From Escherichia coli (lineage in GTDB: Bacteria; Pseudomonadota; Gammaproteobacteria; Enterobacterales; Enterobacteriaceae): a DNA stretch of 64,000 bases. Below, piece after piece: positions 8,267 through 50,512 of this stretch. The position numbers and the translations under genes were made by a program. The notes under the pieces are model-generated. The model saw only the letters and a list, made by a program, of their open reading frames with translations. It was not told the origin of the DNA and made no database searches. Location: NCBI RefSeq assembly GCF_013315695.1, contig NZ_CP054353.1. The stretch is one strand, 5' to 3'. How positions within the stretch are numbered: the first letter of the stretch is position 1; each line of letters opens with the position of its first letter.

Positions 8267-9821
<1,555 letters not shown>

Positions 9822-10937
9822 ATGGCGAGCGTACAGCTGCAAAATGTAACGAAAGCCTGGGGCGAGGTCGTGGTATCGAAAGATATCAATCTCGATATCC
9901 ATGAAGGTGAATTCGTGGTGTTTGTCGGACCGTCTGGCTGCGGTAAATCGACTTTACTGCGCATGATTGCCGGGCTTGAGACGATCACCAGCGGCGACCT
10001 GTTCATCGGTGAGAAACGGATGAATGACACTCCGCCAGCAGAACGCGGCGTTGGTATGGTGTTTCAGTCTTACGCGCTCTATCCCCACCTGTCAGTAGCA
10101 GAAAATATGTCATTTGGCCTGAAACTGGCAGGCGCAAAAAAAGAGGTGATTAACCAACGCGTTAACCAGGTGGCGGAAGTGCTGCAACTGGCGCATTTGC
10201 TGGATCGCAAACCGAAAGCGCTCTCCGGTGGTCAGCGTCAGCGTGTGGCGATTGGCCGTACGCTGGTGGCCGAGCCAAGCGTATTTTTGCTCGATGAACC
10301 GCTCTCCAACCTCGATGCTGCACTGCGTGTGCAAATGCGTATCGAAATCTCCCGTCTGCATAAACGCCTGGGCCGCACAATGATTTACGTCACCCACGAT
10401 CAGGTCGAAGCGATGACGCTGGCCGACAAAATCGTGGTGCTGGACGCCGGTCGCGTGGCGCAGGTTGGGAAACCGCTGGAGCTGTACCACTATCCGGCAG
10501 ACCGTTTTGTCGCCGGATTTATCGGTTCGCCAAAGATGAACTTCCTGCCAGTAAAAGTGACCGCCACCGCAATCGATCAAGTGCAGGTGGAGCTGCCGAT
10601 GCCAAATCGTCAGCAAGTCTGGCTGCCGGTTGAAAGCCGTGATGTCCAGGTTGGAGCCAATATGTCGCTGGGTATTCGCCCGGAACATCTACTGCCGAGT
10701 GATATCGCTGACGTCATCCTTGAGGGTGAAGTTCAGGTCGTCGAGCAACTCGGCAACGAAACCCAAATCCATATCCAGATCCCTTCCATTCGTCAAAACC
10801 TGGTGTACCGCCAGAACGACGTGGTGTTGGTAGAAGAAGGTGCCACATTCGCTATCGGCCTGCCGCCAGAGCGTTGCCATCTGTTCCGTGAGGATGGCAC
10901 TGCATGTCGTCGACTGCATAAGGAGCCGGGCGTTTAA
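9822..10937 (+). CDS. malK: maltose ABC transporter ATP-binding protein MalK
   Basis: Start [15 protein letters not shown]; Walker [10 protein letters not shown]; ABC signature LSGGQRQR; 371 aa. Confidence 0.95.
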
Positions 10938-10978
10938 GCACCCCACAAAACACACAAAGCCTGTCACAGGTGATGTGA

Positions 10979-12349
<1,371 letters not shown>

Positions 12350-12355
12350 TAGCAA

Positions 12356-12485
<130 letters not shown>

Positions 12486-12590
12486 AAAAACAGGTTGTCA
12501 TTATCTGAAAGGGGCGAAAGCCCCTCTGATTATCGGGTTTAGCGCGCTATTGCCTGGCTACCGCTGAGCTCCAGATTTTGAGGTGAAACA

Positions 12591-13511
12591 ATGAAAATGA
12601 ATAAAAGTCTCATCGCCCTCTGTTTATCAGCAGGGTTGCTGGCAAGCGCGCCTGGAATCGGCCTTGCCGATGTTAACTACGTACCGCAAAACACCAGCGA
12701 CACGCCAGCCATTCCATCTGCCGCGCTGCAACAACTCACCTGGACACCGGTCGATCAATCTAAAACCCAGACCACCCAACTGGCGACTGGCGGCCAACAA
12801 CTGAACGTTCCCGGCATCAGTGGTCCGGTTGCTGCGTACAGCGTCCCGGCAAACATTGGCGAACTGACCCTAACGCTGACCAGCGAAGTGAACAAGCAAA
12901 CTAGCGTATTTGCGCCGAACGTGCTGATTCTTGATCAGAACATGACCCCATCAGCCTTCTTCCCCAGCAGTTATTTCACCTACCAGGAACCAGGCGTGAT
13001 GAGTGCAGATCGGCTGGAAGGTGTTATGCGCCTGACACCGGCGTTGGGGCAGCAAAAACTTTATGTTCTGGTCTTTACCACGGAAAAAGACCTCCAGCAG
13101 ACGACCCAACTGCTCGACCCGGCTAAAGCCTATGCCAAAGGCGTCGGTAACTCGATCCCGGATATTCCTGACCCGGTTGCTCGTCATACCACCGATGGCT
13201 TACTGAAACTGAAAGTGAAAACGAACTCCAGTTCCAGCGTGTTGGTCGGGCCTCTATTTGGTTCTTCCGCTCCAGCTCCGGTTACGGTAGGCAACACGGC
13301 GGCACCAGCTGTGGCTGCACCCGCTCCGGCACCGGTGAAGAAAAGCGAGCCGATGCTCAACGACACGGAAAGTTATTTTAATACCGCGATCAAAAACGCT
13401 GTCGCGAAAGGTGATGTTGATAAGGCGTTAAAACTGCTTGATGAAGCTGAACGCCTGGGGTCGACATCTGCCCGTTCCACCTTTATCAGCAGTGTAAAAG
13501 GCAAGGGGTAA
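12591..13511 (+). CDS. malM: periplasmic protein MalM
   Basis: 306-aa ORF with signal peptide; last gene of the malK-lamB-malM operon. Confidence 0.9.
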   Translation: MKMNKSLIALCLSAGLLASAPGIGLADVNYVPQNTSDTPAIPSAALQQLTWTPVDQSKTQTTQLATGGQQLNVPGISGPVAAYSVPANIGELTLTLTSEVNKQTSVFAPNVLILDQNMTPSAFFPSSYFTYQEPGVMSADRLEGVMRLTPALGQQKLYVLVFTTEKDLQQTTQLLDPAKAYAKGVGNSIPDIPDPVARHTTDGLLKLKVKTNSSSSVLVGPLFGSSAPAPVTVGNTAAPAVAAPAPAPVKKSEPMLNDTESYFNTAIKNAVAKGDVDKALKLLDEAERLGSTSARSTFISSVKGKG

Positions 13512-13738
13512 TTACGCCCTACAGTGCTGATTTTGCAACAACTGGTGCGTCTCCTGGCGCACCTTTTTTTATGCTTCATTCCTGGGATATGAGCGATTTT
13601 TTATAGTACTTCGCTTCTTCTTCACTAAGAATATCCATTATCTCAATGCCTTATCAGAGATTCTTTTCCTTTCACCGGTAGTGTCTGGACGCTCAGGCTA
13701 CTTTTCCAGTAATTTCATTTCTGTAATACAGAGGTTTT

Positions 13739-30944: not shown

Positions 30945-32138
30945 GTGTTTCAAAAAGTTGACGCCTACGCTGGCGACCCGATTCTTACGCTTATGGAGCG
31001 TTTTAAAGAAGACCCTCGCAGCGACAAAGTGAATTTAAGTATCGGTCTGTACTACAACGAAGAGGGAATTATTCCACAACTGAAAGCCGTGGCGGATGCA
31101 GAAGCGCGCCTGAATGCGCAGCCTCATGGCGCTTCGCTTTATTTACCGATGGAAGGGCTTAACAGCTATCGCCATGCCATTGCGCCGCTGCTGTTTGGTG
31201 CCGACCATCCGGTACTGCAACAACAGCGCGTAGCAACCATTCAAACCCTTGGCGGCTCAGGGGCATTGAAAGTGGGCGCAGATTTCCTGAAACGCTACTT
31301 CCCGGAATCAGGCGTCTGGGTCAGCGATCCTACATGGGAAAACCACGTAGCAATATTCGCCGGGGCTGGATTCGAAGTAAGTACTTACCCCTGGTATGAC
31401 GAAGCGACTAACGGCGTGCGCTTTAATGACCTGTTGGCGACGCTGAAAACATTACCTGCCCGCAGTATTGTGTTGCTGCATCCATGTTGCCACAACCCAA
31501 CGGGTGCCGATCTCACTAATAACCAGTGGGATGCGGTGATTGAAATTCTCAAAGCCCGCGAGCTTATCCCATTTCTTGATATTGCCTATCAAGGATTTGG
31601 TGCCGGTATGGAAGAGGATGCCTACGCCATTCGCGCCATTGCCAGCGCTGGATTACCCGCTCTGGTGAGCAATTCGTTCTCGAAAATTTTCTCCCTTTAC
31701 GGCGAGCGCGTCGGCGGACTTTCTGTTCTGTGTGAAGATGCCGAAGCTGCAGACCGCGTACTGGGGCAATTGAAAGCAACAGTTCGCCGCAACTACTCCA
31801 GCCCGCCGAATTTTGGTGCGCAGGTGGTGGCAGCGGTGCTGAATGACGAGGCATTGAAAGCCAGCTGGCTGGCGGAAGTAGAAGAGATGCGTACTCGCAT
31901 TTTGGCAATGCGTCAGGAACTGGTGAAGGTATTAAGCACAGAGATGCCAGAACGCAATTTCGATTATCTGCTTAATCAGCGCGGCATGTTCAGTTATACC
32001 GGTTTAAGTGCCGCTCAGGTTGACCGACTACGTGAGGAGTTTGGTGTTTACCTGATTACCAGCGGGCGCATGTGTGTCGCCGGGTTAAATACGGCAAATG
32101 TACAACGTGTGGCAAAGGCGTTTGCTGCGGTGATGTAA
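30945..32138 (+). CDS. tyrB: aromatic-amino-acid aminotransferase
   Basis: GTG start [23 protein letters not shown]; 397 aa; aminotransferase class I. Confidence 0.93.
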
Positions 32139-32360
32139 TGCAGGAAAGCAGGCTGGAGCTACCCAGCCTGCAGTGAAATTAAACTGTCGTCGCTTTCACT
32201 CTTGCTTTATAGATGATTTTTTTGATGCCATCGTTTTACGTGAGGGATAATAAAAGGTTGTCAGTTCTTTTATTGTTAAGTTTATCCCAATTATCTGGAA
32301 TTCCTTTCCCTGTTTTTTCGTGTGGAGTAATAATTTTTGCACATCTAACCATTATTAAAT

Positions 32361-32903
32361 TTAATAATAAGTATCGGGTTTGTTACGATAGAATATTTCT
32401 ATATCCTCAAGAATATGCTTTGCCTTATTGCCTGTGACTTTCTGAGATTCAATTATAGTATCGTTAAATTCTAATGTTAAAGAGAACTCTTTTTTTCCGC
32501 TTTGTGTAAGTTTAACCTTATATTGATTACCAATATCAAATAAAAAGGTCCTGTAATGAGAATAATCACCTTTAACCTCCTCGGCAAAACAGCAAAGTGT
32601 GCAAATATACATACAATCTTTCTTGCCTCTGATTTTGTTAACTAAATCAATAAATGCATGAAAAACTGTACTTGCAATAGAACTTGATACTTCTTCTCCA
32701 GGTCTACAAAAATCTTTTGCAATTTTTAACTGTGTTTCTATATATAAAAAGAAATCTTTGGCATAAGAAAAATCTTTGGAATAAGAGATATCTTTATTAT
32801 TTAGTGCATCTAGCTCAACAGGTAAAGATGTCATTTTGTTGCTATTCACATATGATATATTCATATCATCATCTCCTTCGAGAGTAATAAAATTAGTCAC
32901 CAT
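32361..32903 (-). CDS. AT-rich hypothetical protein between tyrB and aphA
   Basis: 180-aa ORF, strongly AT-rich; no family recognised; sits where K-12 carries the short gene yjbS. Confidence 0.5.
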   Translation of the reverse strand: MVTNFITLEGDDDMNISYVNSNKMTSLPVELDALNNKDISYSKDFSYAKDFFLYIETQLKIAKDFCRPGEEVSSSIASTVFHAFIDLVNKIRGKKDCMYICTLCCFAEEVKGDYSHYRTFLFDIGNQYKVKLTQSGKKEFSLTLEFNDTIIESQKVTGNKAKHILEDIEIFYRNKPDTYY

Positions 32904-33075
32904 TGTAGGGTAGGGTTCTGGTCAACCAGAAATCATCTTTATAAACTTCGATTGTTTTTGTAATGCTGTATCATTAAGTTCATTAAATCGTACAGCAGAT
33001 AAATGTTCTATCAAATTTCGCTCATTTGCAGAGGATTCATCATAATAAACGTAAAATTAATGTATCCTTCATTGA

Positions 33076-37976: not shown

Positions 37977-38513
37977 ATGGCCAGCAGAGGCGTAAACAAG
38001 GTTATTCTCGTTGGTAATCTGGGTCAGGACCCGGAAGTACGCTACATGCCAAATGGTGGCGCAGTTGCCAACATTACGCTGGCTACTTCCGAATCCTGGC
38101 GTGACAAAGCGACCGGCGAGATGAAAGAGCAGACTGAATGGCACCGCGTTGTGCTGTTCGGCAAACTGGCAGAAGTAGCCAGCGAATATCTGCGTAAAGG
38201 TTCTCAGGTTTATATCGAAGGTCAGCTGCGTACCCGCAAATGGACCGATCAATCCGGTCAGGATCGCTACACCACAGAAGTCGTGGTGAACGTTGGCGGC
38301 ACCATGCAGATGCTGGGTGGTCGTCAGGGTGGTGGCGCTCCGGCAGGTGGCAATATCGGTGGTGGTCAGCCGCAGGGTGGTTGGGGTCAGCCTCAGCAGC
38401 CGCAGGGTGGCAATCAGTTCAGCGGCGGCGCGCAGTCTCGCCCGCAGCAGTCCGCTCCGGCAGCGCCGTCTAACGAGCCGCCGATGGACTTTGATGACGA
38501 TATTCCGTTCTAG
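37977..38513 (+). CDS. ssb: single-stranded DNA-binding protein
   Basis: 178-aa protein [44 protein letters not shown] with Gly/Gln-rich tail and C-terminal DFDDDIPF. Confidence 0.98.
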
Positions 38514-38553
38514 AGTTAACTTGTGAGTTATTTGTAAAGAATCCATACGCAGG

Positions 38554-38580
38554 CCCCTGTTAATTCAGGGGTTTTTTGTT
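38554..38580 (+). terminator. rho-independent terminator of ssb
   Basis: cccctg-ttaattc-cagggg hairpin followed by a T-run. Confidence 0.8.
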
Positions 38581-38671
38581 TCTATCGTCGGAAAAAGTGT
38601 CTTGTATAAATTGGTGATTTTTCACATAAAGTGTACCTTGTAATTGTGTAATGTTTATGGGGTGTGAGTGC

Positions 38672-39919
38672 ATGGAAAAGAACTACAGAGTTACAACATT
38701 TGTCATGGATAGTGGCGAGCGCTATTGCATGGTAGTGGATCGTGCTTCTGGGCTTCCCATGTATTACCCCACTCTGTTTCTAACAACTCAAATCCGCAAT
38801 AGAGAGGATGCTTTTTCAACGATGTTGGCGGCGGCTAACAACCTGGTTATGTTGTTACGCTTTGTAGAGAGTCGCGACATTGACCTTGAGCAGCGGTTTT
38901 TGACCAAAGACTTCTTCAAGCCACATGAGCTGGATGATCTGCGAGATTTTGCTCAGTGCAAACAAAGAAAGGGGCCATTAACTGTGTCCTCTACCTCTTG
39001 GTTGGCCGATGCGATGACCGATATCGTTGATAACGGGACACAGCATTCCCGGCTAACAACGTTTGCCAACTATTTACACTGGTATGCGATGCATATCTTA
39101 AAGACGACAGAACTGGAAGTTGTCGAAAAGATCAATGCTATGGCGGCGCAGATAAAGACGCGCCGACCATCTAAAAAGCGCAGAAACCACGACTTACAAG
39201 ACAGGTCATTGAGTGATGTTCAATTGGACGCGCTATTTGAAGTCATCCAGCCTAGATCAGAGTTAAACCCTTTCTCAATAGATGTGCAGCGCCGCAATCG
39301 GCTGATGATCTTACTTCTGTTTTATCTTGGCATCCGAGGTGGTGAATTATTAAATATAAGAATACAGGACATAGATTTTAGCGCTAACAGGATCCGTATC
39401 GTTAGGAGAGCAGATGAACAAGCTGACTCTAGAACCAATGAGCCTAATGCTAAAACTAGAGAACGGCTCTTACCGTTGGCTGAATCCTTAGCTCAAGAAC
39501 TGCATAGTTATATCCTTCAAGATCGCCGGAAAGTCAGAAATGCGAAGAAAAATGACTATCTGTTTGTAACTTACAAGAGTGGACCAACTCTGGGAAATCC
39601 TATCTCCAAAGGGGGATATCATAAAATTTTTTCCGTAGTCAGGTCTATATCACCGCAATTGTATGCAGCGACAGGACATTCGCTCCGCCACACTTGGAAT
39701 CGCAAGTTTTCAGAAAGAATGGATGCCATGAATGAGCAAGTCAGCGAGGAACGCCAAGAGCAACTTCGTTCGTACTTAATGGGCTGGAGAGATGGCTCGG
39801 GAACCGCAGCGACTTACAACAAGCGTTTCATTCGGCAAAAAGGTTTTGAGGCCGCCTTGGCATTACAAGCAGGTAACGGCACTAGCTTGCCAGAGGACTT
39901 CAAGGATGACCATGAATAA
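38672..39919 (+). CDS. tyrosine recombinase 1 of 3 (phage-integrase family)
   Basis: Integrase motifs: box-I Arg region LLFYLGIRGGELLNIRIQDIDF, GHSLRHTW (H-x-x-R) and LMGW...TAATYNKRF (catalytic Tyr). Alternative ATG starts at 38651 and 38657. Confidence 0.8.
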   Translation: MEKNYRVTTFVMDSGERYCMVVDRASGLPMYYPTLFLTTQIRNREDAFSTMLAAANNLVMLLRFVESRDIDLEQRFLTKDFFKPHELDDLRDFAQCKQRKGPLTVSSTSWLADAMTDIVDNGTQHSRLTTFANYLHWYAMHILKTTELEVVEKINAMAAQIKTRRPSKKRRNHDLQDRSLSDVQLDALFEVIQPRSELNPFSIDVQRRNRLMILLLFYLGIRGGELLNIRIQDIDFSANRIRIVRRADEQADSRTNEPNAKTRERLLPLAESLAQELHSYILQDRRKVRNAKKNDYLFVTYKSGPTLGNPISKGGYHKIFSVVRSISPQLYAATGHSLRHTWNRKFSERMDAMNEQVSEERQEQLRSYLMGWRDGSGTAATYNKRFIRQKGFEAALALQAGNGTSLPEDFKDDHE

Positions 39920-41444
39920 CCTCTTACTTGGGTTAGTACCAGAACGAATCCGTGCCAGGGCCAATGGCTACTCTTTTCTGTTGTATGACACATCGTGGAC
40001 ATTGGATAGAAATATCACTATTAATCTTGCTGATATTCACCATTACTTGTCAGATGGGACGCTAGATGGCTGCCTGCGTACACTGGCGTTTTATGCATCC
40101 AATCGTTCTTCTTCTCATACAAAAAATATTCTTGAACGGTTTCAGCACATGCTGCGTGAGACTGACGCGAGAGAAATTACTGATACGGTATTGATTAATT
40201 ATCGGTCGATGCTGTCGCCTGCAACAGAATGGTATCTAGCAACCATCCGTGGCTTTCTTCGATCCTGGCACGAACTGGGCTATCCCGGCATCAGTAAGGA
40301 GGTGAACCGCTTGCTAGATGGCTGGACGCTAAAGGGTAATCGTAAGGGGGATGCGGTTAAGCGCATGGATCCTCAAGAGGGGCCACTGACGGATAATGAG
40401 CTGACAGCGTTTAACGAGGGGGCTGTTCGGGCTTATGAAAAGAGCTTAATTACTATAGCTGAGTTGGCTATAGCACTTGGCACCAGTCATACAGGACGTC
40501 GTCCCATTCAGATCTCGCTGCTTCGTGTGGTCGATGTCCTTTGTGGTAAAAATGGAAAGGGAGAGCCCTTCTATGTGTTGAATGTGCCGCGAGCCAAGCA
40601 GCGCAGCAGCTCTTTCCGAATAAACTTCAAACCATTTGCAATATCACTGGAACTATGGGCAATCCTGAGTGCTCAGGCAAGAAATGCGATTGCGCAGGTT
40701 GAAAATCGTTTGGGGTTTGAATTGCAGGAAGATGACCGGCAGCAAATCCCTCTTTTTCCTGATCTTGATGTGTTAGATGCCGTCCAATCTCCTTATGAAT
40801 TCCGCCAACTGCATGCTACCGACAAACTCCACATTCCCGCCGCAGAGATAACCGACACCCTCCAATACATCGTAGAAAAGTCCGACATCCGGTCGGAACG
40901 TACCGGTGAGCTATTACATATCAATGCTCGTCGTTTTCGTTATACCACAGGCACACGAGCTGCCCGGGAAGGCTTTGGCGAGCTGGTGATTGCGGAACTG
41001 CTTGACCACGCGGACACCCAAAACGCAGGCGTTTACATCAAGAATATCCCCGAGCATGTGAAAAAGCTTGATGAGGCGGTTGGCTTCCAATTAGCACCAT
41101 ACGCTCAGGCCTTTGTCGGGGCACTTGTCGATTCAGAGAGAGACGCGCATCGAGGTAACGACCCTACCAGTCGTATTCGGACCGAAATGGGTCAGGGTGT
41201 TGGTACTTGTGGAGAACATGGCTTTTGTGGTGCCAATGTTCCTATTCCTTGCTACACCTGCATGCATTTCCAGCCTTGGCTGGACGGCCCACATGAAGAT
41301 GTCTATCAAGGACTGCTCAACGAACGTGAACGGGTGAAAGAGATAACTGGCGACATCCAGATTGCTGCCGTACTTGATCGCAGTATTATCGCGCTGGCAG
41401 ATGTGATCATGCGTTGTGCAAAACGTCGTGAAGAGCTTAGTTAA
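39905..41444 (+). CDS. tyrosine recombinase 2 of 3, with C-terminal Cys-rich region
   Basis: Start ATG overlaps the stop of recombinase 1 (translational coupling); ARRFRYTTGTRAA ... LLDHADTQNAGVYIK resembles the R/H-x-x-R ... Y catalytic region; Cys cluster CGEHGFCGANVPIPCYTCMHF. Confidence 0.7.
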
Positions 41445-41460
41445 CAGGGAGCAATAACCA

Positions 41461-43494
41461 ATGGCTGAGATTTTCCTGTTTAAGCCAAAGGCTACGCTGA
41501 CAGCAGCAGAAAACCTTGAAGCATTCATATCCCAGTGCCGAGATCAATTGACTGTATTCGGCTCTGATCTCACTTGGGAAGATCCTGTTTGGCCAAACAT
41601 AACTGTATTTGCCAAGTTGGGCATTATTACGAGAAAACCCATACTGGAAGAGACGCAAGACCCTGCTTTCATTGATTTTGCCAAAGCCTATTTCCGTTAC
41701 CAGCAGGGGCATAGCCTCTCTAGGGCAAAGAATGAAAGTAAAGCCCTCCGTGCGGTTGAGGCGGCTTTGCTTCAAGTAAATGGAAACGCAAATATTGATG
41801 GCCTGTCGATTTCTGTGCTGGATGAAGCAGCTGAATTGGCAAAGCATTACTACTCCGATGGCTCCGCATATCATTGTGGCCGTGAGATTGAGCGGCTGGC
41901 TAAGTTTGTAGCTGAAAACCAGCTTGTATCAAGTGCTGTACAAAATTGGGTCAATCCAATTAAACGTGCAGAGGATAAGAACAAAACGAGCAGAAAGGCG
42001 AAGAAAAATAGGGAAGATAAACTTCCGAGTGATATTGCTCTTAATGCGTTGGCGGAAATTTTTGCCAACGACCCAATTCATGAGCGAGACATATTTACAA
42101 CATCGGTTTTTGCCATGTTGATGTCGGCACCTTCACGTATTACTGAGGTGTTAGCACTGCCTGTGGATTGCGAGGTTTTTGAAACGGATCGTGAAGGGAT
42201 AGAACGATATGGTTGGCGTTTTTTTGCGGGGAAAGGCTATGAGGGTGATATCAAATGGATACCCACCGTGATGGTCGGTATAGCTAAGACAGCCGTAGCT
42301 AGAGCTAGAGTGCTCTCTGAAAATGCACGACAACTGGCCAAGTGGATCGAGAAACACCCGAATAAGTTTTACCGCCATGCTAACTGTCCCAGTGTAGCCG
42401 ATGATGAGCCATTGACGATGAAGCAGGTTTGTATGGCGCTCGGTTTTGCACATTACTCTAAAAAGACGTGCAGGTCGTGTCTTGGTAATCGAGGTTTAGC
42501 TAAAGAGGATGGTGTACATACTCTAAATAGCCTGTGGCAGCACACAATGGCGCGTTTACCGGATGGCTTTCCGTGGTTTGATAAAGACAAGGGAATTAGG
42601 TACAGCAATGCCTTGTTTGTACTGAACGTAAATCAGTTCCACGGGAACAGAGGATGCATACCAGTTGAGTTACATAAGCCAACCAATAATTTCTTCAACA
42701 GTGATCTGACGCCTCGTCTGTCCTTGAAAGGAAAACATGCCAGTATCTTTGATCGCCATGGTTACCATGCTGTAAACGGAGAGCCGGTGAAATTAACCTC
42801 ACATCAGGCTCGACACCTGCTCAACACCATTATCCAGCGCGGTGGCCTGTCAAACTTGGAAATTGCCAAGTGGTCGGGGCGGGCAGATGTGAAACAGAAT
42901 CGAACTTACAACCACATGACTGAATACGAACTGGTTGGCATTGCTGAACGCCTTGATCCCACAACAGCGCTATTTGGGCCTGCTGGCGAGGTGGCAAAGC
43001 ATCTGCCCGTGACTATGCAGGAGTTCAATACCTTAGAGCATGCCGCAGTCCATGTGACGGAGTATGGCTACTGTGTGCATGATTACACCATGAGTCCTTG
43101 TGAGAAATTCCGAGATTGCGTCAATTGTACCGAACAGGTTTGCATCAAAGGCGATGATGCTGAAAAGTTGGATCGCATTAAGATACGTCTGGAGAAATTA
43201 GAGCGACTGTTTTTTCTTGCTGACGCAGCAGTGGAAAGTGGTGAGATAGGAACTGATCGCTGGTATCAGTACCACAAGAAAACTGTTACCCGGCTTCGTG
43301 AACTAGTGGCTATTTTAGAGAATCCAGACATTGAAAATGGTGTCCAGATTAAGCTCCGGGGCAATGATTTCAGCCAGCTTCGCCGTGTTGTCGCAAAGAC
43401 GTCTATTGTGGCCATCGAGCAAAAAGGCAAAGAAAGTGAAGAAGCTGTGATGTTAGATGATTTGACAACTTTGTTAGGAGGTGGCCTTGGCTAA
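41461..43494 (+). CDS. tyrosine recombinase 3 of 3 (677 aa), with C-terminal Cys-rich region
   Basis: LTSHQARHLLNTIIQRGG ... WSGRADVKQNRTYNHMTEYE (H-x-x-R-H ... Y); Cys cluster YGYCVHDYTMSPCEKFRDCVNCTEQVC; begins 16 bp after recombinase 2. Confidence 0.75.
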   Translation: MAEIFLFKPKATLTAAENLEAFISQCRDQLTVFGSDLTWEDPVWPNITVFAKLGIITRKPILEETQDPAFIDFAKAYFRYQQGHSLSRAKNESKALRAVEAALLQVNGNANIDGLSISVLDEAAELAKHYYSDGSAYHCGREIERLAKFVAENQLVSSAVQNWVNPIKRAEDKNKTSRKAKKNREDKLPSDIALNALAEIFANDPIHERDIFTTSVFAMLMSAPSRITEVLALPVDCEVFETDREGIERYGWRFFAGKGYEGDIKWIPTVMVGIAKTAVARARVLSENARQLAKWIEKHPNKFYRHANCPSVADDEPLTMKQVCMALGFAHYSKKTCRSCLGNRGLAKEDGVHTLNSLWQHTMARLPDGFPWFDKDKGIRYSNALFVLNVNQFHGNRGCIPVELHKPTNNFFNSDLTPRLSLKGKHASIFDRHGYHAVNGEPVKLTSHQARHLLNTIIQRGGLSNLEIAKWSGRADVKQNRTYNHMTEYELVGIAERLDPTTALFGPAGEVAKHLPVTMQEFNTLEHAAVHVTEYGYCVHDYTMSPCEKFRDCVNCTEQVCIKGDDAEKLDRIKIRLEKLERLFFLADAAVESGEIGTDRWYQYHKKTVTRLRELVAILENPDIENGVQIKLRGNDFSQLRRVVAKTSIVAIEQKGKESEEAVMLDDLTTLLGGGLG

Positions 43495-43906
43495 GCATCT
43501 GGACAATAGAGACATTAACGCCATCGTAAATCTAATTCGAGGATGGAAGGAACCAAAACTGTCCTGGTCAGCAATTTGTGAGGCGGCAGAACCATTGGTC
43601 GGAAAGTTGCCGTCAAGACAGTCCCTTAATGCACATGAGGCAATAGTGACTGCCTATCAAACAAAGAAAGAGGCGCTTAAAGGCCGTGGCCCCAAAAATC
43701 CGCGTCCAGCTAGTTTGAACATTGCAGCCGCGAGGATTGTGAATCTTGAAAGCGAAATCGAAGAGCTTAAGGAAGAGAACCGGAGGTACAAACAACAGTT
43801 TGTGATCTGGCAATACAATGCATACAAATATGGAATGACAGAACATCAACTTAATGCGCAGCTGACAAAGATTGACCGTGAGCGCTCTGATGGAGAAAGA
43901 AGATAG
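43481..43906 (+). CDS. small recombinase-associated protein (141 aa, predicted coiled coil)
   Basis: ORF start overlaps the recombinase-3 stop by 14 bp; charged, helix-prone sequence (LESEIEELKEENRRYKQQF); placement is like TnpC of Tn554-type elements. Confidence 0.6.
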   Translation: MALAKHLDNRDINAIVNLIRGWKEPKLSWSAICEAAEPLVGKLPSRQSLNAHEAIVTAYQTKKEALKGRGPKNPRPASLNIAAARIVNLESEIEELKEENRRYKQQFVIWQYNAYKYGMTEHQLNAQLTKIDRERSDGERR

Positions 43907-43981
43907 TTGCTGAGTACGATATCGAGGGTACATTTCTCTGTGTAGGGGTAGTTATTTACAAAAAAATAGGAGAATAATTAA

Positions 43982-46900
43982 ATGGTCAAACCAAACTGGG
44001 ATAACTTTAAAGCTAAATTTAGTGAGAATCCTCAAGGTAATTTTGAGTGGTTTTGCTACTTGTTGTTCTGTCAAGAATTCAAAATGCCCGCAGGTATATT
44101 TAGATATAAGAATCAATCTGGTATCGAAACTAATCCAATAACCAAAGATAATGAAATTATCGGTTGGCAATCTAAATTCTATGACACAAAATTGTCGGAT
44201 AACAAAGCTGATCTTATAGAAATGATTGAGAAAAGCAAAAAGGCTTATCCAGGATTAAGTAAAATCATTTTCTATACTAATCAAGAGTGGGGGCAGGGGA
44301 GAAAGTCCCATGAACCTGAAGGCGATAAGAACGCTGATAATTATTTGGAAACTGTCGGAAATAGTAACGATCCCAAAATAAAAATTGAAGTTGATCAGAA
44401 AGCATATGAGTCGGGTATCGAAATAGTATGGAGAGTTGCTAGTTTTTTTGAATCACCGTTTGTAATAGTTGAGAATGAAAAGATTGCTAAACATTTCTTC
44501 TCCCTTAATGAAAGCATCTTTGATTTATTAGAAGAAAAGCGCAAGCACACAGAAAATGTTTTATATGAAATTCAAACCAATATAGAGTTCAAAGACAGAA
44601 GTATTGAAATTGACAGACGACATTGTATAGAACTTCTACATGAGAATCTAGTTCAGAAAAAAATTGTCATCGTCAGCGGAGAAGGTGGGGTTGGAAAAAC
44701 AGCAGTTATCAAAAAAATTTATGAAGCAGAAAAACAATACACTCCTTTCTATGTCTTTAAGGCTAGCGAGTTTAAAAAGGACAGTATTAATGAGCTATTC
44801 GGTGCGCATGGCTTAGACGATTTCTCTAATGCTCATCAAGACGAATTACGTAAAGTCATAGTCGTAGATTCTGCTGAAAAGCTTTTAGAACTGACCAATA
44901 TCGATCCTTTTAAAGAATTCCTGACTGTTTTAATAAAGGATAAATGGCAGGTTGTTTTCACAACCCGTAACAACTACTTGGCAGATCTGAACTATGCTTT
45001 CATAGATATTTATAATATAACTCCTGGAAACTTAGTAATAAAGAACCTTGAACGCGGCGAGCTAATAGAGTTATCTGATAACAATGGATTTAGCCTTCCT
45101 CAAGATGTTCGATTATTAGAACTAATCAAAAATCCATTTTATCTAAGTGAATATTTGAGGTTCTATACCGGTGAAAGCATCGATTATGTGAGCTTCAAAG
45201 AAAAGCTTTGGAATAAGATTATTGTCAAAAATAAACCTTCTCGGGAGCAGTGTTTCTTAGCGACTGCTTTTCAGCGGGCTAGTGAGGGCCAATTTTTTGT
45301 CTCCCCGGCATGTGATACTGGAATTTTAGATGAGTTAGTTAAAGACGGAATTGTCGGCTATGAAGCTGCTGGTTACTTCATTACACATGATATATACGAG
45401 GAATGGGCATTAGAAAAGAAAATTTCTGTCGATTATATCCGTAAAGCGAACAATAACGAGTTCTTCGAAAAAATAGGAGAATCACTTCCTGTTCGCCGTA
45501 GTTTTCGGAATTGGATATCTGAACGATTGCTTTTAGATGACCAGTCCATAAAGCCTTTTATCGCAGAAATAGTCTGTGGAGAAGGAATATCAAATTTTTG
45601 GAAAGACGAGTTATGGGTAGCTGTCCTTCTTTCCGATAATTCAAGCATATTTTTTAATTACTTTAAAAGATATTTACTTAGTAGTGACCAGAATCTATTA
45701 AAAAGACTTACTTTCTTATTGAGGCTTGCTTGCAAGGACGTTGATTACGATCTGCTTAAACAGTTAGGTGTAAGTAATTCAGATCTGCTTTCCATTAAAT
45801 ATGTTCTTACTAAGCCTAAGGGAACTGGTTGGCAGAGTGTGATCCAATTTATCTATGAAAATTTAGATGAAATAGGGATCAGAAATATTAATTTTATACT
45901 TCCTGTGATTCAGGAGTGGAATCAAAGAAACAAAGTGGGTGAAACGACTCGATTATCTAGTTTGATAGCCCTAAAATATTATCAATGGACTGTAGATGAG
46001 GATGTCTATTTATCCGGAAGGGATAATGAGAAAAATATTCTGCATACGATTCTTCATGGGGCGGCCATGATTAAACCTGAAATGGAAGAGGTTTTAGTTA
46101 AGGTTCTTAAAAATAGGTGGAACGAGCACGGTACCCCATATTTCGACCTTATGACCTTAATCCTTACTGACTTAGATTCATATCCGGTTTGGGCATCTCT
46201 CCCGGAATATGTTCTACAATTGGCAGATCTGTTCTGGTATCGGCCACTTAAAGAAACAGGCGAACGTTATCACAGTATGGATATTGAAGATGAGTTCGGT
46301 CTATTTAGGTCTCATCACGACTATTATCCAGAAAGTCCATATCAGACTCCTATATATTGGTTACTACAATCACAGTTCAAAAAAACAATAGACTTTATTC
46401 TTGATTTTACGAACAAGACAACGATATGTTTTGCCCACTCCCATTTTGCTAAAAACGAAATTGAAGAAGTCGATGTCTTTATTGAAGAAGGAAAGTTTAT
46501 AAAGCAATATATATGCAATCGTCTGTGGTGCTCATATCGAGGAACACAGGTCTCTACCTACTTACTTTCATCAATTCATATGGCATTGGAAAAATTTTTT
46601 CTTGAGAATTTTAAAAATGCAGACTCGAAAGTGTTGGAAAGTTGGCTTCTTTTCTTGTTAAGAAATACCAAGTCAGCTTCTATTTCTGCAGTAGTTACGA
46701 GTATTGTACTTGCATTCCCTGAGAAGACATTCAATGTAGCTAAAGTACTATTCCAAACAAAGGATTTCTTCCGTTTTGATATGAATCGAATGGTTCTAGA
46801 CAGAACACATAAAAGTTCATTAATCTCCCTCAGGGATGGCTTTGGCGGTACAGATTACAGAAACTCTTTGCACGAAGAAGATAGAATTAAAGCTTGCGAT

Positions 46901-48745
46901 GATGTGCATAGAAATACTTATCTTGAAAATCTTGCCTTGCATTATCAAATTTTCAGGAGTGAAAATGTAACGGAGAAAGATGTCATTGAAAGGCAACAAG
47001 TGCTCTGGGGTATTTTCGATAAATACTATAATCAGCTTCCAGATGAAGCTCAAGAAACTGAAGCCGATAAGACGTGGAGGCTCTGCTTGGCAAGAATGGA
47101 TCGGCGAAAGATGAAAATAACTACCAAGGAGAAAGATGAAGGGATTGAGATATCATTCAATCCTGAGATTGACCCTAAACTAAAGCAATATAGTGAGGAA
47201 GCAATAAAGAAAAACTCCGAGCATATGAAGTATGTAACGCTGAAACTATGGGCAAGCTATAAAAGAGAAAAGGATGAACGTTATAAGAATTATGGAATGT
47301 ATGAGGACAATCCGCAAATTGCTTTACAAGAGACCAAAGAAATAATAAAAAAGCTTAATGAGGAAGGGGGTGAAGATTTCAGACTATTAAATGGTAATAT
47401 ACCAGCAGACGTTTGTTCTGTATTACTGTTAGATTACTTTAATCAGTTGAATAATGAAGAGAGAGAATATTGTAAAGATATTGTTCTAGCATATTCTCAA
47501 CTTCCGTTGAAGGAAGGCTATAATTATCAGGTACAAGATGGGACAACCTCGGCAATTTCAGCCTTACCCGTGATTTATCATAATTATCCAATGGAAAGGG
47601 AGACTATAAAAACAATATTACTTTTGACACTGTTTAATGACCACTCTATTGGAATGGCAGGTGGGCGCTACTCAGTATTTCCTAGTATGGTGATTCATAA
47701 ATTATGGCTAGACTATTTTGATGATATGCAGTCTCTATTGTTTGGTTTTTTGATTTTAAAGCCAAAGTATGTAATTCTTTCAAGAAAAATCATTCATGAA
47801 AGTTATCGTCAAGTAGACTATGACATTAAAAAAATAAATATTAATAAGGTGTTTTTAAATAACTATAAGCATTGCATATCAAATGTCATCGATAATAAAA
47901 TATCTATAGATGATTTGGGAAGTATAGATATAGTTGATCTACATATTTTGAACACAGCTTTCCAATTAATTCCAGTTGATACTGTTAATATTGAACATAA
48001 GCAATTGGTTTCCTTAATTGTTAAAAGATTTTCTACAAGCCTATTGTCAAGTGTTCGAGAAGATAGAGTTGATTACGCTCTTCGGCAGTCTTTCTTGGAA
48101 AGATTTGCCTACTTTACGCTTCATGCGCCCGTGAGCGATATTCCCGATTATATAAAACCTTTTCTTGATGGTTTCAACGGTTCAGAGCCTATTTCAGAGT
48201 TATTTAAAAAATTTATTCTCGTCGAAGATAGATTAAATACTTACGCCAAATTTTGGAAGGTTTGGGATTTGTTTTTTGATAAAGTGGTTACTTTGTGCAA
48301 GGATGGAGATAGGTATTGGTATGTAGATAAAATTATAAAAAGTTACCTTTTTGCTGAATCTCCATGGAAAGAAAACTCTAATGGTTGGCACACATTTAAA
48401 GATAGCAATAGTCAATTCTTTTGCGATGTATCTAGGACTATGGGCCATTGCCCTTCAACTTTATATTCTCTTGCCAAATCTTTGAATAACATTGCCAGTT
48501 GCTATCTTAATCAAGGTATAACCTGGCTTTCAGAAATGTTGTCGGTTAATAAAAAGCTATGGGAAAAGAAATTGGAAAATGATACTGTTTATTTTTTAGA
48601 ATGTTTGGTTAGGCGGTATATTAACACTGAGCGTGAGCGAATTAGACGAACCAAACAGTTGAAAGAAGAGGTCTTAGTAATATTGGATTTTTTGGTAGAG
48701 AAAGGATCTGTTGTTGGTTATATGTCACGGGAAAATATTCTGTGA
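43982..48745 (+). CDS. large STAND-type P-loop NTPase with N-terminal Mrr/PD-(D/E)xK-like domain; candidate Avs-like antiviral sensor
   Basis: 1587-aa ORF, about one third GC. Walker A IVIVSGEGGVGKTAV; Walker B VIVVDSAEKL; sensor-1-like VVFTTRN; N-terminus FEWFCYLLF...SGIETN...IIGWQSKFY...KIIFYTNQEW resembles Mrr catalytic-domain motifs; long C-terminal region of more than 1000 aa. RBS-like GGAG upstream. Confidence 0.75.
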   Translation: MVKPNWDNFKAKFSENPQGNFEWFCYLLFCQEFKMPAGIFRYKNQSGIETNPITKDNEIIGWQSKFYDTKLSDNKADLIEMIEKSKKAYPGLSKIIFYTNQEWGQGRKSHEPEGDKNADNYLETVGNSNDPKIKIEVDQKAYESGIEIVWRVASFFESPFVIVENEKIAKHFFSLNESIFDLLEEKRKHTENVLYEIQTNIEFKDRSIEIDRRHCIELLHENLVQKKIVIVSGEGGVGKTAVIKKIYEAEKQYTPFYVFKASEFKKDSINELFGAHGLDDFSNAHQDELRKVIVVDSAEKLLELTNIDPFKEFLTVLIKDKWQVVFTTRNNYLADLNYAFIDIYNITPGNLVIKNLERGELIELSDNNGFSLPQDVRLLELIKNPFYLSEYLRFYTGESIDYVSFKEKLWNKIIVKNKPSREQCFLATAFQRASEGQFFVSPACDTGILDELVKDGIVGYEAAGYFITHDIYEEWALEKKISVDYIRKANNNEFFEKIGESLPVRRSFRNWISERLLLDDQSIKPFIAEIVCGEGISNFWKDELWVAVLLSDNSSIFFNYFKRYLLSSDQNLLKRLTFLLRLACKDVDYDLLKQLGVSNSDLLSIKYVLTKPKGTGWQSVIQFIYENLDEIGIRNINFILPVIQEWNQRNKVGETTRLSSLIALKYYQWTVDEDVYLSGRDNEKNILHTILHGAAMIKPEMEEVLVKVLKNRWNEHGTPYFDLMTLILTDLDSYPVWASLPEYVLQLADLFWYRPLKETGERYHSMDIEDEFGLFRSHHDYYPESPYQTPIYWLLQSQFKKTIDFILDFTNKTTICFAHSHFAKNEIEEVDVFIEEGKFIKQYICNRLWCSYRGTQVSTYLLSSIHMALEKFFLENFKNADSKVLESWLLFLLRNTKSASISAVVTSIVLAFPEKTFNVAKVLFQTKDFFRFDMNRMVLDRTHKSSLISLRDGFGGTDYRNSLHEEDRIKACDDVHRNTYLENLALHYQIFRSENVTEKDVIERQQVLWGIFDKYYNQLPDEAQETEADKTWRLCLARMDRRKMKITTKEKDEGIEISFNPEIDPKLKQYSEEAIKKNSEHMKYVTLKLWASYKREKDERYKNYGMYEDNPQIALQETKEIIKKLNEEGGEDFRLLNGNIPADVCSVLLLDYFNQLNNEEREYCKDIVLAYSQLPLKEGYNYQVQDGTTSAISALPVIYHNYPMERETIKTILLLTLFNDHSIGMAGGRYSVFPSMVIHKLWLDYFDDMQSLLFGFLILKPKYVILSRKIIHESYRQVDYDIKKININKVFLNNYKHCISNVIDNKISIDDLGSIDIVDLHILNTAFQLIPVDTVNIEHKQLVSLIVKRFSTSLLSSVREDRVDYALRQSFLERFAYFTLHAPVSDIPDYIKPFLDGFNGSEPISELFKKFILVEDRLNTYAKFWKVWDLFFDKVVTLCKDGDRYWYVDKIIKSYLFAESPWKENSNGWHTFKDSNSQFFCDVSRTMGHCPSTLYSLAKSLNNIASCYLNQGITWLSEMLSVNKKLWEKKLENDTVYFLECLVRRYINTERERIRRTKQLKEEVLVILDFLVEKGSVVGYMSRENIL

Positions 48746-48840
48746 TGTAGTTGAAAATAATAATTTTAATGAGAGCTTTTCCAATTTAGGCTCCAGGGAT
48801 TGGAGCCTTTTTATTATCGAAAAGATTAATATCTTATAAG

Positions 48841-49059
48841 TCAATCAGTAAAACGCAGCAAAGCTCGTTGCTCTTGAATGTTCACTCCGTGATAAATTCT
48901 TTGATTACCACATAAATAACAAGAACAAGCACAAGGGGTGCAGTAAATTTTCCCTACAACTTTTTCAGTTTTAGCCAACGCAATTCGATATGTTTTTCTC
49001 TTAGATTTTAACCGAGATATATGATGACGACGCCATGCCCGATTTCTAACCATTTCCAT
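48841..49059 (-). CDS. small basic Cys-rich ORF (72 aa), possible zinc-ribbon protein or gene remnant
   Basis: ORF with RRHHISRLKSKRK and C-x-x-C-x-C...C; lies between the convergent NTPase gene and the 273-aa gene; coding status uncertain. Confidence 0.25.
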   Translation of the reverse strand: MEMVRNRAWRRHHISRLKSKRKTYRIALAKTEKVVGKIYCTPCACSCYLCGNQRIYHGVNIQEQRALLRFTD

Positions 49060-49283
49060 TCACTCCAATTTTCTACCGCGGTGTTATACCGCGCCCGTAT
49101 CAATCTTTGGAGTTCGATATCGATCTGACCTTTCATGAATACCTCGGAATTTATCAATAAAGTGAGTGCTATATCATAGCTTATGGGATGAAAGTTTGAT
49201 ATTTAGCACTTTTCAGCTTTAGGTAAAGCTGTCCTCAATAAAGCTAATTTCTTGTTTATTAATGGAATTTCTATGTGGAAGTG

Positions 49284-50105
49284 TTAGAAATCCTGTTTTA
49301 CTTTATCCATCGTTAAAACTTTACTTATTATATAAGGATCATAATTTCTTATACTCATAAGGCAATTTATCAAATTGGAAACGTGGCTATCATCAGGTAT
49401 AAGTATATATTTAATATCATCGAAAGAAAAACCAATGCCAAATTCAGAGAATTTTTTACTTAAGACGGCCTTCTGGTTAGGTTCCACCACTCGCTCTAAA
49501 TTTAGGCTAGGCCATAAATCGCCAACAAACGGATGCGGTACATATCTCCATTCTTTTTCGTCAGCGTAGATATAATTCTCAATGGTTTTTTCGTTCGTCC
49601 TTTCTAATTTCCCTTTATAATTTTTCATATAGCGTAATAAATTATAAAGGTCAGCGTACTCTTCTTTAAGGCTTTCAAAATACTTACGCTCTTTATTATC
49701 AAGGATATGCCTTTTCGACCATAGCGGAATTAACGCATCCTTTAGTTTTCTAATTCTTTTATTATACTTTGAAAATAATTCACTGCCTTGATTCATGTAT
49801 AGAACGGGATGGAGATCATTTTTCTCAGCCCATTCTTTTGTTAACCCAAATCCAAATTCACCATATTTTCCACTATGATCTTTAATCTGAGAAAGCTTGA
49901 TGTCACAGAATGAAACCATTGGTACTGCGAAATTTCTTCTTCCTTTTACTCCGACTATGCGTTCACGGGCAAGAAATGGTTTAAAATAGAGTTCTGTTAA
50001 AATGCTATAGAATGCCTCTTCATTTTTAGTAAAGTGAAACAACGTTGTTGGATGTAAACTATTAACTGCTTGTATAACTGTTTCTTGGTTTTCTATAGCA
50101 CTCAT
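49284..50105 (-). CDS. AT-rich hypothetical protein (273 aa), possible abortive-infection or defence-associated protein
   Basis: Clean ORF convergent with the NTPase gene; no family identified with certainty from sequence alone (LFHFTKNEEAFYSIL N-terminal motif). Confidence 0.6.
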   Translation of the reverse strand: MSAIENQETVIQAVNSLHPTTLFHFTKNEEAFYSILTELYFKPFLARERIVGVKGRRNFAVPMVSFCDIKLSQIKDHSGKYGEFGFGLTKEWAEKNDLHPVLYMNQGSELFSKYNKRIRKLKDALIPLWSKRHILDNKERKYFESLKEEYADLYNLLRYMKNYKGKLERTNEKTIENYIYADEKEWRYVPHPFVGDLWPSLNLERVVEPNQKAVLSKKFSEFGIGFSFDDIKYILIPDDSHVSNLINCLMSIRNYDPYIISKVLTMDKVKQDF

Positions 50106-50512
50106 ATATTAACTGTTCCATAGTGTAAAACCTGACTTAGCAAAGGTTATCATACTAGTCTTTGTACTGTAAGCACACTTGGTTTAATTCCACGCACTTT
50201 TTGAGATTTCCGGTTTTTTGATCTCTTACCAAAATCTATGCCAGATTGAATCAAAGGTCCGAGCTGGGTCACCAAAAAAAGTAAAATTATGCACTTTGAT
50301 AGATTATATTTTAACTAAATTCTTTACAGTTAAATCATTTCTTATGCCTTAGTTTCTGATAAAAAAGGTTTTTTTTCACGATTTATAAGTATCAGGTTAT
50401 GTGAACCGTTCTGATTTGTCGTTAAAACAATAGGTTATATTGTTTTAAGGTGGATGATTAAAGCATCTGCCAGCCATAAAAAAGAAGCCTCCGTTTTGGA
50501 GGCTTCTACATA

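Follow-up and report, generated by a model that had tools for sequence, protein, structure and literature searches.

A ginABCD mobility operon on an 11.9 kb island at the 3' end of ssb in Escherichia coli

The four genes at 38672-43906 of the window (the whole 64,000-nucleotide stretch of E. coli DNA analysed here) are, with high confidence, the ginABCD mobility operon of an 11.9 kb GInt inserted at the 3' end of ssb. [quoted passage not shown] Among 5426 complete E. coli genomes, 436 contain the element itself, and 361 records have copies with at least 99 % identity, many of these records being ST131 genomes. The host of the island is an ST131-like E. coli, and the site is the ssb/yjcB hotspot.

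Both the GInt type (2017) and the E. coli ssb locus (two surveys in 2023) are already on record, and the identification has little discovery value. Hotspot #39 (yjcB/ssb) of E. coli has been reported with a GInt occupant carrying defence cargo (Hochhauser, Millman & Sorek 2023 PLoS Genet, PMC10121019), and the ginC genes of the ST131 genomes NZ_CP021454, NZ_CP015138 and NZ_CP021179 are included in the ortholog list of Additional file 10 of Idola 2023; by accession and coordinates, the listed ST131 ginC is a near-identical gene at the same position as ginC of the window. The window's own RefSeq accessions are absent from that supplement, where a near-identical variant (WP_000807722.1) is present, and a shorter older annotation of ginD (WP_001552205.1) is in its ginD ortholog list. 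In the two surveys, site, element type and kind of cargo (anti-phage defence) all equal those of the window, with no substantive difference. The analysis is of use for annotation, as ginC and ginD are still labelled 'hypothetical protein' in RefSeq and the island is now delimited to the base. The island also provides an example of an anti-phage gene, Avs4, moving between IncF plasmids and the chromosome of an ST131-like pandemic clone.

Operon layout and the ends of the island

The features of the island, with positions in the window, are as follows.

38505-38511, +, attL core CCGTTCT: last ssb bases up to the first base of the stop codon; the switch from chromosome to element is immediately 3'
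38512-38671, +, left end: 'AG' of the ssb stop, inverted-repeat arms and hairpin, upstream of ginA
38672-39919, +, ginA: ATG start, 415 aa, ordinary-size tyrosine recombinase
39906-41444, +, ginB: ATG start, 512 aa, tyrosine recombinase with C-terminal Cys cluster
41461-43494, +, ginC: ATG start, 677 aa, large tyrosine-recombinase fold with Cys/His cluster and helical C-terminal extension
43487-43906, +, ginD: TTG start, 139 aa, small accessory protein
43982-48745, +, avs4 cargo: AVAST type 4 anti-phage nuclease (NCBIfam NF041815 2066 bits, cut-off 1500; PADLOC Avs4 2361 bits)
49284-50105, -, AbiGi-family cargo gene: RefSeq annotation; PADLOC AbiGi 1.6e-44
50106-50405, +, short AT-rich 3' end: inverted-repeat partners ATTCTTTACAGTTAAATCA (50319-50337) and CAGGTTA (50393-50399)
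50406-50412, +, attR core CCGTTCT: followed by the original chromosomal GATTTGTC, which includes the remaining bases of the former ssb stop

Gene coordinates were refined using start-codon context, family alignments and the annotation that RefSeq gives for an identical locus in E. coli. The operon lies just downstream of ssb and, as had been proposed from the spacing of the genes, consists of four co-oriented plus-strand ORFs that overlap or abut: ginB (AGAGGA 8 nt upstream of its start) overlaps ginA by 14 nt, ginC (AGGGAG upstream of its start) follows ginB after a gap of 16 nt, and ginD (TAGGAGG 5 nt upstream of its TTG) overlaps ginC by 8 nt. Of the sizes initially given for the three large proteins (422, 513 and 677 aa), the last stands, and the first two are revised to 415 and 512 aa; the longer GinA arose from a start at 38651, whereas alignments with homologues begin at residue 1 of the 415-aa protein. 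The small ORF is present as described, with its start moved from GTG 43481 to TTG 43487, which is favoured because the family consensus begins MAKHL.

A search built on a 16-sequence alignment yielded 79 related loci from Gamma-, Beta- and Deltaproteobacteria and Acidobacteria, and all four ORFs are complete and in the same order in 66 of them, with ginD after ginC in essentially every locus. Among the 57 loci having upstream sequence, 49 have an ssb gene whose end lies some 90-310 nt upstream of ginA, in most cases near 140 nt. GC content is 0.46-0.48 in the gin operon, about 0.34 in the cargo and 0.52-0.56 in the flanks. Avs4 was found at 0 of the 79 related loci, indicating that the cargo is variable.

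When the window is compared against the unoccupied K-12 site and a plasmid copy, the island spans about 38512-50412, a length of 11.9 kb, and has a 7-bp direct repeat, CCGTTCT, on both sides; the two repeats are 11,901 bp apart in the window and 11,900 bp apart in plasmid pEQ011. The stop codon of ssb is TGA in K-12 and TAA in pEQ011, and both occupied sites have an element-derived TAG, so that ssb ends in a stop codon brought by the island and the SSB protein is unchanged. At the left end, an imperfect terminal inverted-repeat arm, TAACTTG (38517-38523), is followed by a second arm, TGAGTTATTTGTAAAGAAT (38524-38542), and by a terminator-like hairpin between ssb and ginA (38551-38574; terminator scan); no strong sigma-70 consensus was found upstream of ginA. 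The inverted repeats may be the arms bound by the recombinases. The search for conserved ends in relatives, suggested initially, recovered a conserved TACCTNAG-type motif in 49 related loci, where it sits about 5 nt past the core and precedes TGTAA, and the att core is common to published ssb-inserted GInts, e.g. those of Opitutus (GTGCCGTTCT) and Ralstonia (CCGTTCTAAT). At the right end, a generic attR expression (AGGT..N(4-7)..CCNTTYT) gave 6 matches downstream of ginD in the 79 loci against 9 on the control strand, which leaves the 'TCAGGT-N6-core' right end shared by the window and three related loci (L020, L034 and L067) only suggestive; inverted-repeat scoring for attR across the 79 loci was noisy.

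Recombinases, cysteine clusters and GinD

Conservation was measured over about 72 homologous operons with 28-90 % identity. The H/R-x-x-R...Y motifs initially read in all three large proteins belong to full catalytic sets: R222, K261, H336-x-x-R339, W372 and Y382 in GinA (100 % conserved), R199, K231, (R/H)342-x-x-R345, H368 and Y377 in GinB (at least 99 %, except position 342, which is R or H) and R226, K258, H448-x-x-R451, W471 and Y483 in GinC (at least 99 %). Judged from these alignments, the catalytic motifs are real, far beyond chance, and none of the three genes is degenerate. Searches against family profiles and structures likewise agree with the first reading of all three as tyrosine recombinases. 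GinA matches Pfam PF00589 (5.8e-15) and a PHROG integrase (2.5e-22). GinB matches NCBIfam NF041502 'site-specific integrase' (1e-203); its Pfam match reaches only 0.015, over the catalytic C-terminus, and in a profile search against the PDB the top matches are all Xer recombinases (E 0.014), with Arg I, HxxR, His III and Tyr aligned. For GinC, the corresponding values are 0.55 (Pfam) and 0.41 (PDB profile, a weak match to Xer recombinases), the AlphaFold model has a pLDDT of 86, and its Foldseek matches are exclusively tyrosine recombinases (Cre, XerA, XerH, IntI and Tn1549 Int). Single-sequence searches of GinB and GinC against the PDB returned only noise, and PADLOC and PHROGs hold no family for GinC or GinD. 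By these Pfam and PDB-profile values, sequence-only support for GinB and GinC as recombinases is marginal.

GinC is said to lack the RHRY motif (Idola 2023, PMC10214605), and the type GinC is said to miss the first catalytic Arg (Bardaji 2017, PMC5385486). The conservation of the RHRY residues of GinC here means either that the ssb-targeting family differs or that the earlier alignments missed the Arg. Retention of R226 by GinC may thus be a small addition to known GInt biology. The C-terminal Cys clusters noticed initially in the second and third proteins are also borne out, as C435, C441, C449, C452, H463 and C504 of GinB and H531, C538, H540, C547, C553, C556 and C561 of GinC are 93-100 % conserved in the same operons. 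Both clusters may bind zinc, as had been suggested. No mention of them was found in the GInt literature searched, and the two 2023 surveys do not describe the catalytic or Cys residues; going by residue conservation, the clusters are a second possible small addition to published GInt descriptions. In a profile-profile comparison of GinB with GinC, the catalytic region and the first 'GFC' motif align, but weakly (E=0.0087, probability 4.6 %), and paralogy of the two Cys modules is not established by this alignment.

We tentatively propose, at somewhat less than even confidence, that in ssb-targeting GInts all three Gin recombinases, GinC included, are catalytically competent, and that GinB and GinC share an undescribed C-terminal Cys/His module, probably zinc-binding. 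All three recombinases would then be expected to cleave DNA, and the synapse would be hetero-oligomeric and built from three different active tyrosine recombinases, with an SSB-tail DNA target on chromosomes and conjugative plasmids explaining wide spread without transfer genes. The full catalytic set of GinC and the invariant Cys clusters of GinB and GinC offer concrete residues for mutagenesis in the study of a multi-recombinase mechanism that is still little understood. A protein of 1194 aa (P0121), considered as a GinB-GinC fusion and hence as an argument for a complex, was rejected, since it consists of two GinC-like halves in tandem.

The model of GinD has four short helices and one of 41 residues (residues 75-115). 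The long helix fits the initial description as partly coiled-coil, but a fold search gave no significant PDB match, so that neither this reading nor the published 'helix-loop-helix' is confirmed.

Movement between ssb genes

The view of the operon as the module that moves the island, put forward initially, is supported by the boundaries, the direct repeat and an independent insertion at a plasmid ssb. The conjugative IncF plasmid pEQ011 carries an 11.9 kb copy behind its own ssb gene, at 99.94 % identity, and attR there keeps the plasmid's TAA stop; PLSDB holds 36 plasmid records with at least 80 % of the query, and copies occur on Salmonella, Klebsiella and Citrobacter plasmids. No discussion of the plasmid-ssb copies was found in the available parts of Hochhauser 2023 and Idola 2023. 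Two ssb paralogues located on separate replicons hold near-identical copies joined at one and the same core, which requires recent site-specific movement.

In the mechanism that we propose, GinA, GinB and GinC (all with tyrosine-recombinase folds) and the small GinD would act together on both ends of the island, and recombination between attL and attR at or beside the 7-bp core would release a circular form, which could reintegrate wherever that core ends an ssb gene, the element-borne stop codon leaving SSB unaltered. The end of ssb is the landing pad for the Avs4-carrying island; it encodes the conserved C-terminal tip D-D-[D/E]-[I/V/L]-P-F of SSB and is therefore to be found across widely different bacteria as well as on conjugative plasmids. 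Lacking transfer genes, the element probably spreads between cells by hitch-hiking on ssb-carrying conjugative plasmids. For the type GInt of Pseudomonas, excision and integration depend on all four genes, a circular intermediate is formed, and transfer of full-length GInts could not be demonstrated (Bardaji 2017, PMC5385486). The copy in the window is presumably active too, probably with some division of labour among its Gin proteins.

It is improbable, though the least so of the alternatives, that the island is a GInt only by descent, now an immobile, fixed remnant inherited vertically in ST131. The abundance of at least 99 % identical records, many of them in that lineage, would fit such a remnant, as would the failure to demonstrate transfer of full-length GInts, the hairpin between ssb and ginA and the lack of a strong sigma-70 consensus noted above. 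A search of 5426 complete E. coli genomes and of metagenome contigs likewise found neither the predicted circular junction (attI) nor tandem copies of the element; absence of the junction is expected if circles are rare. Against a remnant stand four intact ORFs with their catalytic residues in place, the insertions into two ssb paralogues with the same core junctions, and the copies on plasmids of other genera.

Relationship to other multi-recombinase elements

The proteins of the window match the type Gin fragments of Pseudomonas stutzeri DSM 4166 printed in Fig. S1 of Bardaji 2017 (PMC5385486) directly and collinearly in BLASTP: GinA to residues 181-415 (30 % over 219 aa, E=7e-25), GinB to the GinB fragment (32 % over 92 aa, E=8e-5) and GinC to residues 483-538 (41 % over 63 aa, E=4e-11). 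BLASTP found no match to the second GinC fragment (residues 61-180), although the motif PF-x-x-FAKA is visibly common to both. [quoted passage not shown] With GInts described in the same work it shares insertion at the 3' end of ssb with SSB unchanged, imperfect direct repeats with CCGTTCT and the absence of conjugation genes. In contrast, the type element, known from P. stutzeri and P. syringae, is inserted in an ABC-transporter gene, and its GinC is the one said to miss the Arg retained here as R226; this other target, together with an identity of only about 30-40 %, places the window element in one of the separate ssb-targeting GInt families.

GInts, SEs, Tn554 and RIT elements have been compared together (Idola 2023, PMC10214605), and the parallels with Tn554 and RIT elements drawn in the initial annotation are the same as those made there and in Bardaji 2017 (PMC5385486), where the identity between GinD and TnpC was found to be low but significant. 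An SE (intA-tfp-intB-srap), a member of the sister class with four genes, copies out one strand and leaves no empty site, and resembles the island in its four conserved left-end genes (three with a recombinase fold and one small), its reliance on tyrosine-recombinase chemistry only, its target-site specificity, its short imperfect terminal inverted repeats, its gammaproteobacterial host and its non-mobilizable nature; some GInts, too, leave no detectable empty site, and the large third protein keeps RHRY, like IntB of SEs. That the island is an SE is nevertheless very improbable. The second SE protein, Tfp, is non-catalytic and lacks the RHRY residues, whereas no such member is apparent in the window, where GinB keeps R199, K231, R345, H368 and Y377 in 99-100 % of 72 homologues. 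The direct matches to type GInt fragments and the rarity of SEs in Escherichia, a difference in host preference, point the same way; SEs are set apart here by their published description. No BLAST-level similarity has been reported between the two groups, and PSI-BLAST with MCL clustering separates GinC and GinD from Tfp and Srap, the gene itself being in the published ginC list (Idola 2023, PMC10214605).

Even less credible is a module of the Tn554 (TnpA-TnpB-TnpC), recombinase-in-trio (RIT) or gamma-mobile-trio (GMT) type. Tn554 of Staphylococcus likewise combines an ordinary and a large tyrosine recombinase with a small protein and inserts site-specifically, but it has two recombinases (TnpA and TnpB) besides TnpC, where the window has three recombinase-fold genes, and it differs in its Firmicutes host and its target, att554. 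RIT elements do have three recombinases, but we know of no conserved small fourth gene in them. For GMT, the sole match is a weak NCBIfam match of GinA to GmtY, which scores 17 bits where the cut-off is 340. A tblastn search with GinC against 72,556 plasmids gave no Staphylococcus or Vibrio among the matches listed, which also speaks against these types.

The gin operon and its recombinases

The island belongs to the known GInt type and occupies a known E. coli hotspot: between them, the published GInt, Idola and Hochhauser (PMC10121019) records cover its element type, the locus it occupies and the part it plays in carrying defence genes. Within the chromosomal gene order uvrA-ssb … yjcB-pdeC-soxSR, four plus-strand ORFs downstream of ssb confirm the operon of three recombinases and a small protein recognized in the initial annotation, whose coordinates hold overall; only genes 1 and 4 begin elsewhere, and gene 2 is off by one base. 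The positions used here derive from the RefSeq annotation of an identical locus, codon context and family alignments, and many ST131-type genomes match the window at 100 % identity.

Features of the island and the adjoining ssb gene
37977-38513: ssb, with the four operon ORFs directly 3' of it
38551-38574: terminator-like hairpin (AGGCCCCTG…CAGGGGTTTTTTG) inside the left end, just 3' of the new ssb stop
38672-39919, plus strand: gene 1 (ginA), ATG start, 415 aa
39906-41444, plus strand: gene 2 (ginB), ATG start, 512 aa, 14-nt overlap with gene 1
41461-43494, plus strand: gene 3 (ginC), ATG start, 677 aa, 16-nt gap after gene 2
43487-43906, plus strand: gene 4 (ginD), TTG start, 139 aa, 8-nt overlap with gene 3
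Cargo: avs4, low GC (NCBIfam and PADLOC)
49284-50105, minus strand: cargo gene of the AbiGi family (PADLOC, 1.6e-44)
Right end of the island: 300 bp, AT-rich

All four gene starts are preceded by a Shine-Dalgarno-like sequence. In older RefSeq annotation ginD is an 86-aa protein (WP_001552205.1, 261 nt, 43646-43906), and in the current one a 139-aa protein (WP_001062122.1, 43487-43906); an alignment of 30 sequences favours the long form, which begins MAKHL at the TTG codon. A search for a fold relative of GinD detected none.

The proposed function as a recombinase operon is supported. Gene 1 clearly encodes a tyrosine recombinase (Pfam PF00589, 5.8e-15; PHROG integrase, 2.5e-22). For gene 2 the Pfam match is weak (0.015), but the NCBIfam ‘site-specific integrase’ NF041502 matches it end to end (1e-203); searched against the PDB, a 34-homologue profile recovers Xer recombinases exclusively, with R199 aligned to Arg I, R342-x-x-R345 to HxxR, H368 to His III and Y377 to the nucleophile. 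Gene 3, labelled hypothetical in RefSeq, goes undetected by sequence libraries (Pfam 0.55; no NCBIfam, PHROG or PADLOC family). Its AlphaFold model (53 homologues, pLDDT 86) has tyrosine recombinases as its sole PDB matches (Cre, XerA, XerH, IntI and Tn1549 Int; probability 1.00), and in the profile alignment R226 corresponds to Arg I and H448-x-x-R451 … Y483 to the catalytic C-terminus. When the four proteins were taken from 79 related genomic loci and scored (~72 sequences), a complete R-K-H/R-R-H/W-Y set was present in each of the three recombinases in 99-100 % of cases, and this conservation persists in GinA, GinB and GinC although identity drops to ~28-35 %.

Cysteine clusters and the catalytic residues of GinC

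The Cys clusters noticed earlier in the second and third proteins are real and, across the family, as conserved as the catalytic residues. They comprise C435-x5-C441-x7-C449-x2-C452 with H463 and C504 in GinB, and H531, C538, H540, C547, C553-x2-C556 and C561 in GinC; from these patterns we infer that they bind zinc. They go unmentioned in the GInt papers by Bardaji et al. 2017 (PMC5385486) and Idola et al. 2023 (PMC10214605). GinC is described as lacking the RHRY motif by Idola et al. (PMC10214605) and as missing the first Arg by Bardaji et al. 2017 (PMC5385486). In the ssb-targeting family, R226, K258, H448, R451, W471 and Y483 of GinC are kept in 99-100 % of sequences and lie where the fold predicts, so GinC of this family may be catalytically competent. 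The catalytic set and the Cys clusters may be slightly new, residue-level refinements that leave the GInt classification unchanged. A metagenomic 1194-aa protein (P0121) has two GinC-like halves, the first truncated and the second complete, and arose either by tandem duplication or through an assembly error; a GinB-GinC fusion is ruled out, both halves being GinC-like.

Island ends, contents and classification

The empty K-12 site reads …GACATTCCGTTC TGA TTTGTCATTAAAAC…, and the junctions in the window read …GATATTCCGTTCT / AGAGTTAACTTG… on the left and …CAGGTTATGTGAACCGTTCT / GATTTGTCGTTAAAAC… on the right; the island therefore extends from ~38512 to 50412, with a repeat-to-repeat length of 11,901 bp and the 7-bp direct repeat CCGTTCT on both flanks. 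The ssb stop changes from TGA to a TAG supplied by the island, and the SSB protein is unchanged. With the hairpin, the island seems to provide ssb with a terminator, insulating ginA from ssb transcription. Imperfect inverted repeats pair the two ends (TAACTTG with CAGGTTA, adjoining the core; 38524-38542 with 50319-50337). Right ends were also sought generically in other related loci, but the search proved non-specific. GC is 0.46-0.48 in the gin operon versus ~0.34 in the cargo. Low-GC patches (0.32-0.35) also occur at 14001-15000, 24001-25000 and 32001-33000, the rest of the window being at 0.50-0.57; the latter two lie in or near a DUF2713 gene and the tyrB-aphA intergenic region, which are core genome. 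No AbiGii partner is annotated alongside the AbiGi-family gene, and the plasmid copy has a 219-nt hypothetical ORF between this gene and avs4.

[quoted passage not shown] 2017, PMC5385486). Several distantly related GInt families sit at the end of ssb ‘without altering the product’, and the core CCGTTCT is contained in the tabulated ssb repeats of Opitutus (GTGCCGTTCT) and Ralstonia (CCGTTCTAAT) (PMC5385486). Against the type-protein fragments printed in Fig. S1 of that paper, gene 1 matches GinA (30 % identity, E=7e-25), gene 2 GinB (E=8e-5) and gene 3 GinC (41 % identity, E=4e-11), identities that fit the 24-40 % reported between GInt families (PMC5385486). Idola et al. 2023 (PMC10214605) list ginC/ginD orthologues of RefSeq genomes; Additional file 10 gives WP_000807722.1 at 4544661-4546694 of NZ_CP021454.1, and places this protein also in NZ_CP015138.1 and NZ_CP021179.1. 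Gene 3 maps exactly onto the NZ_CP021454.1 entry (megablast match H5), and the other two genomes are also among the megablast matches to the window (H6 and H7).

Other mobile elements with several recombinases were weighed against this assignment. A strand-biased circularizing integrative element (SE; intA-tfp-intB-srap) would have the same layout, but its second protein lacks the catalytic residues, whereas gene 2 has the full set, and SEs are reported to form a group distinct from GInts in sequence (PMC10214605). A Tn554-type transposon would carry two recombinases, according to the same source (PMC10214605). For a gamma-mobile-trio system, the family model scores 17 bits, where the cut-off is 340. 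Recombinase-in-trio elements are not known to have a fourth gene, unlike the operon in the window.

Movement and distribution

Plasmids carry the same island after their own ssb gene. In the conjugative IncF plasmid pEQ011 (L003, NC_023315.1) the copy at 9004-20910 is 99.94 % identical over 11.9 kb and lies after the leading-region ssb and before the psiB region; the attL sequences of the plasmid and chromosomal copies are identical, and after the attR core come the stop codon and downstream sequence native to the plasmid (…CCGTTCT / AACGAAAG…). That the island is joined to two different ssb paralogues, on two replicons, at the same 7 bases indicates recent site-specific insertion, not homologous exchange. 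The window copy may by now be transmitted only vertically, but the presence of plasmid and chromosomal copies argues for recent activity. An island without conjugation genes could plausibly be transferred by riding on conjugative plasmids. The predicted junction of the excised circle (attI) is …CAGGTTATGTGAA-CCGTTCT-AGAGTTAACTTG… and the predicted restored attB …GACATTCCGTTCTGATTTGTC…; a search of public assemblies for the circular junction found none.

Among complete E. coli genomes, 436 of 5426 match the island, at 376 chromosomal and 93 plasmid places; plasmid copies also occur in Salmonella, Klebsiella and Citrobacter. Gin operons interrupted by insertion sequences were seen among the E. 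coli matches, by an IS3-family element in strain N32 (H1, NZ_CM165895.1) and by IS1A on a plasmid (H25, CP088521.1).

A scan of one genome per species yielded the 79 related loci, from Gamma-, Beta- and Deltaproteobacteria and one Acidobacterium. Complete copies of all four gin ORFs, arranged in the same order, are present in 66, and in 49 of the 57 with >1 kb upstream the end of ssb lies ~90-310 nt (mostly ~140 nt) upstream of gene 1. The adjoining ssb ends in D-D-[D/E]-[I/V/L]-P-F, encoded by …CC[N]TT[Y]T. Avs4 is found in none of the 79 loci, so the cargo is variable. In Halomonas sp. (L056), CCGTTTT-AGAGGCCACCTT at ~14078, downstream of the GInt, resembles another GInt's left end (compare CCCTTCT-AGAGGCCACCTTAG at locus L052), which suggests that a single ssb site holds two tandem GInts. 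In Martelella alba (L005, NZ_SZPQ01000029.1), assigned as an alphaproteobacterium, the gin operon is 77-93 % identical to that of E. coli and adjoins an enterobacterial-type ssb (N-terminal 106 residues 91 % identical), reflecting either assembly contamination or very recent transfer.
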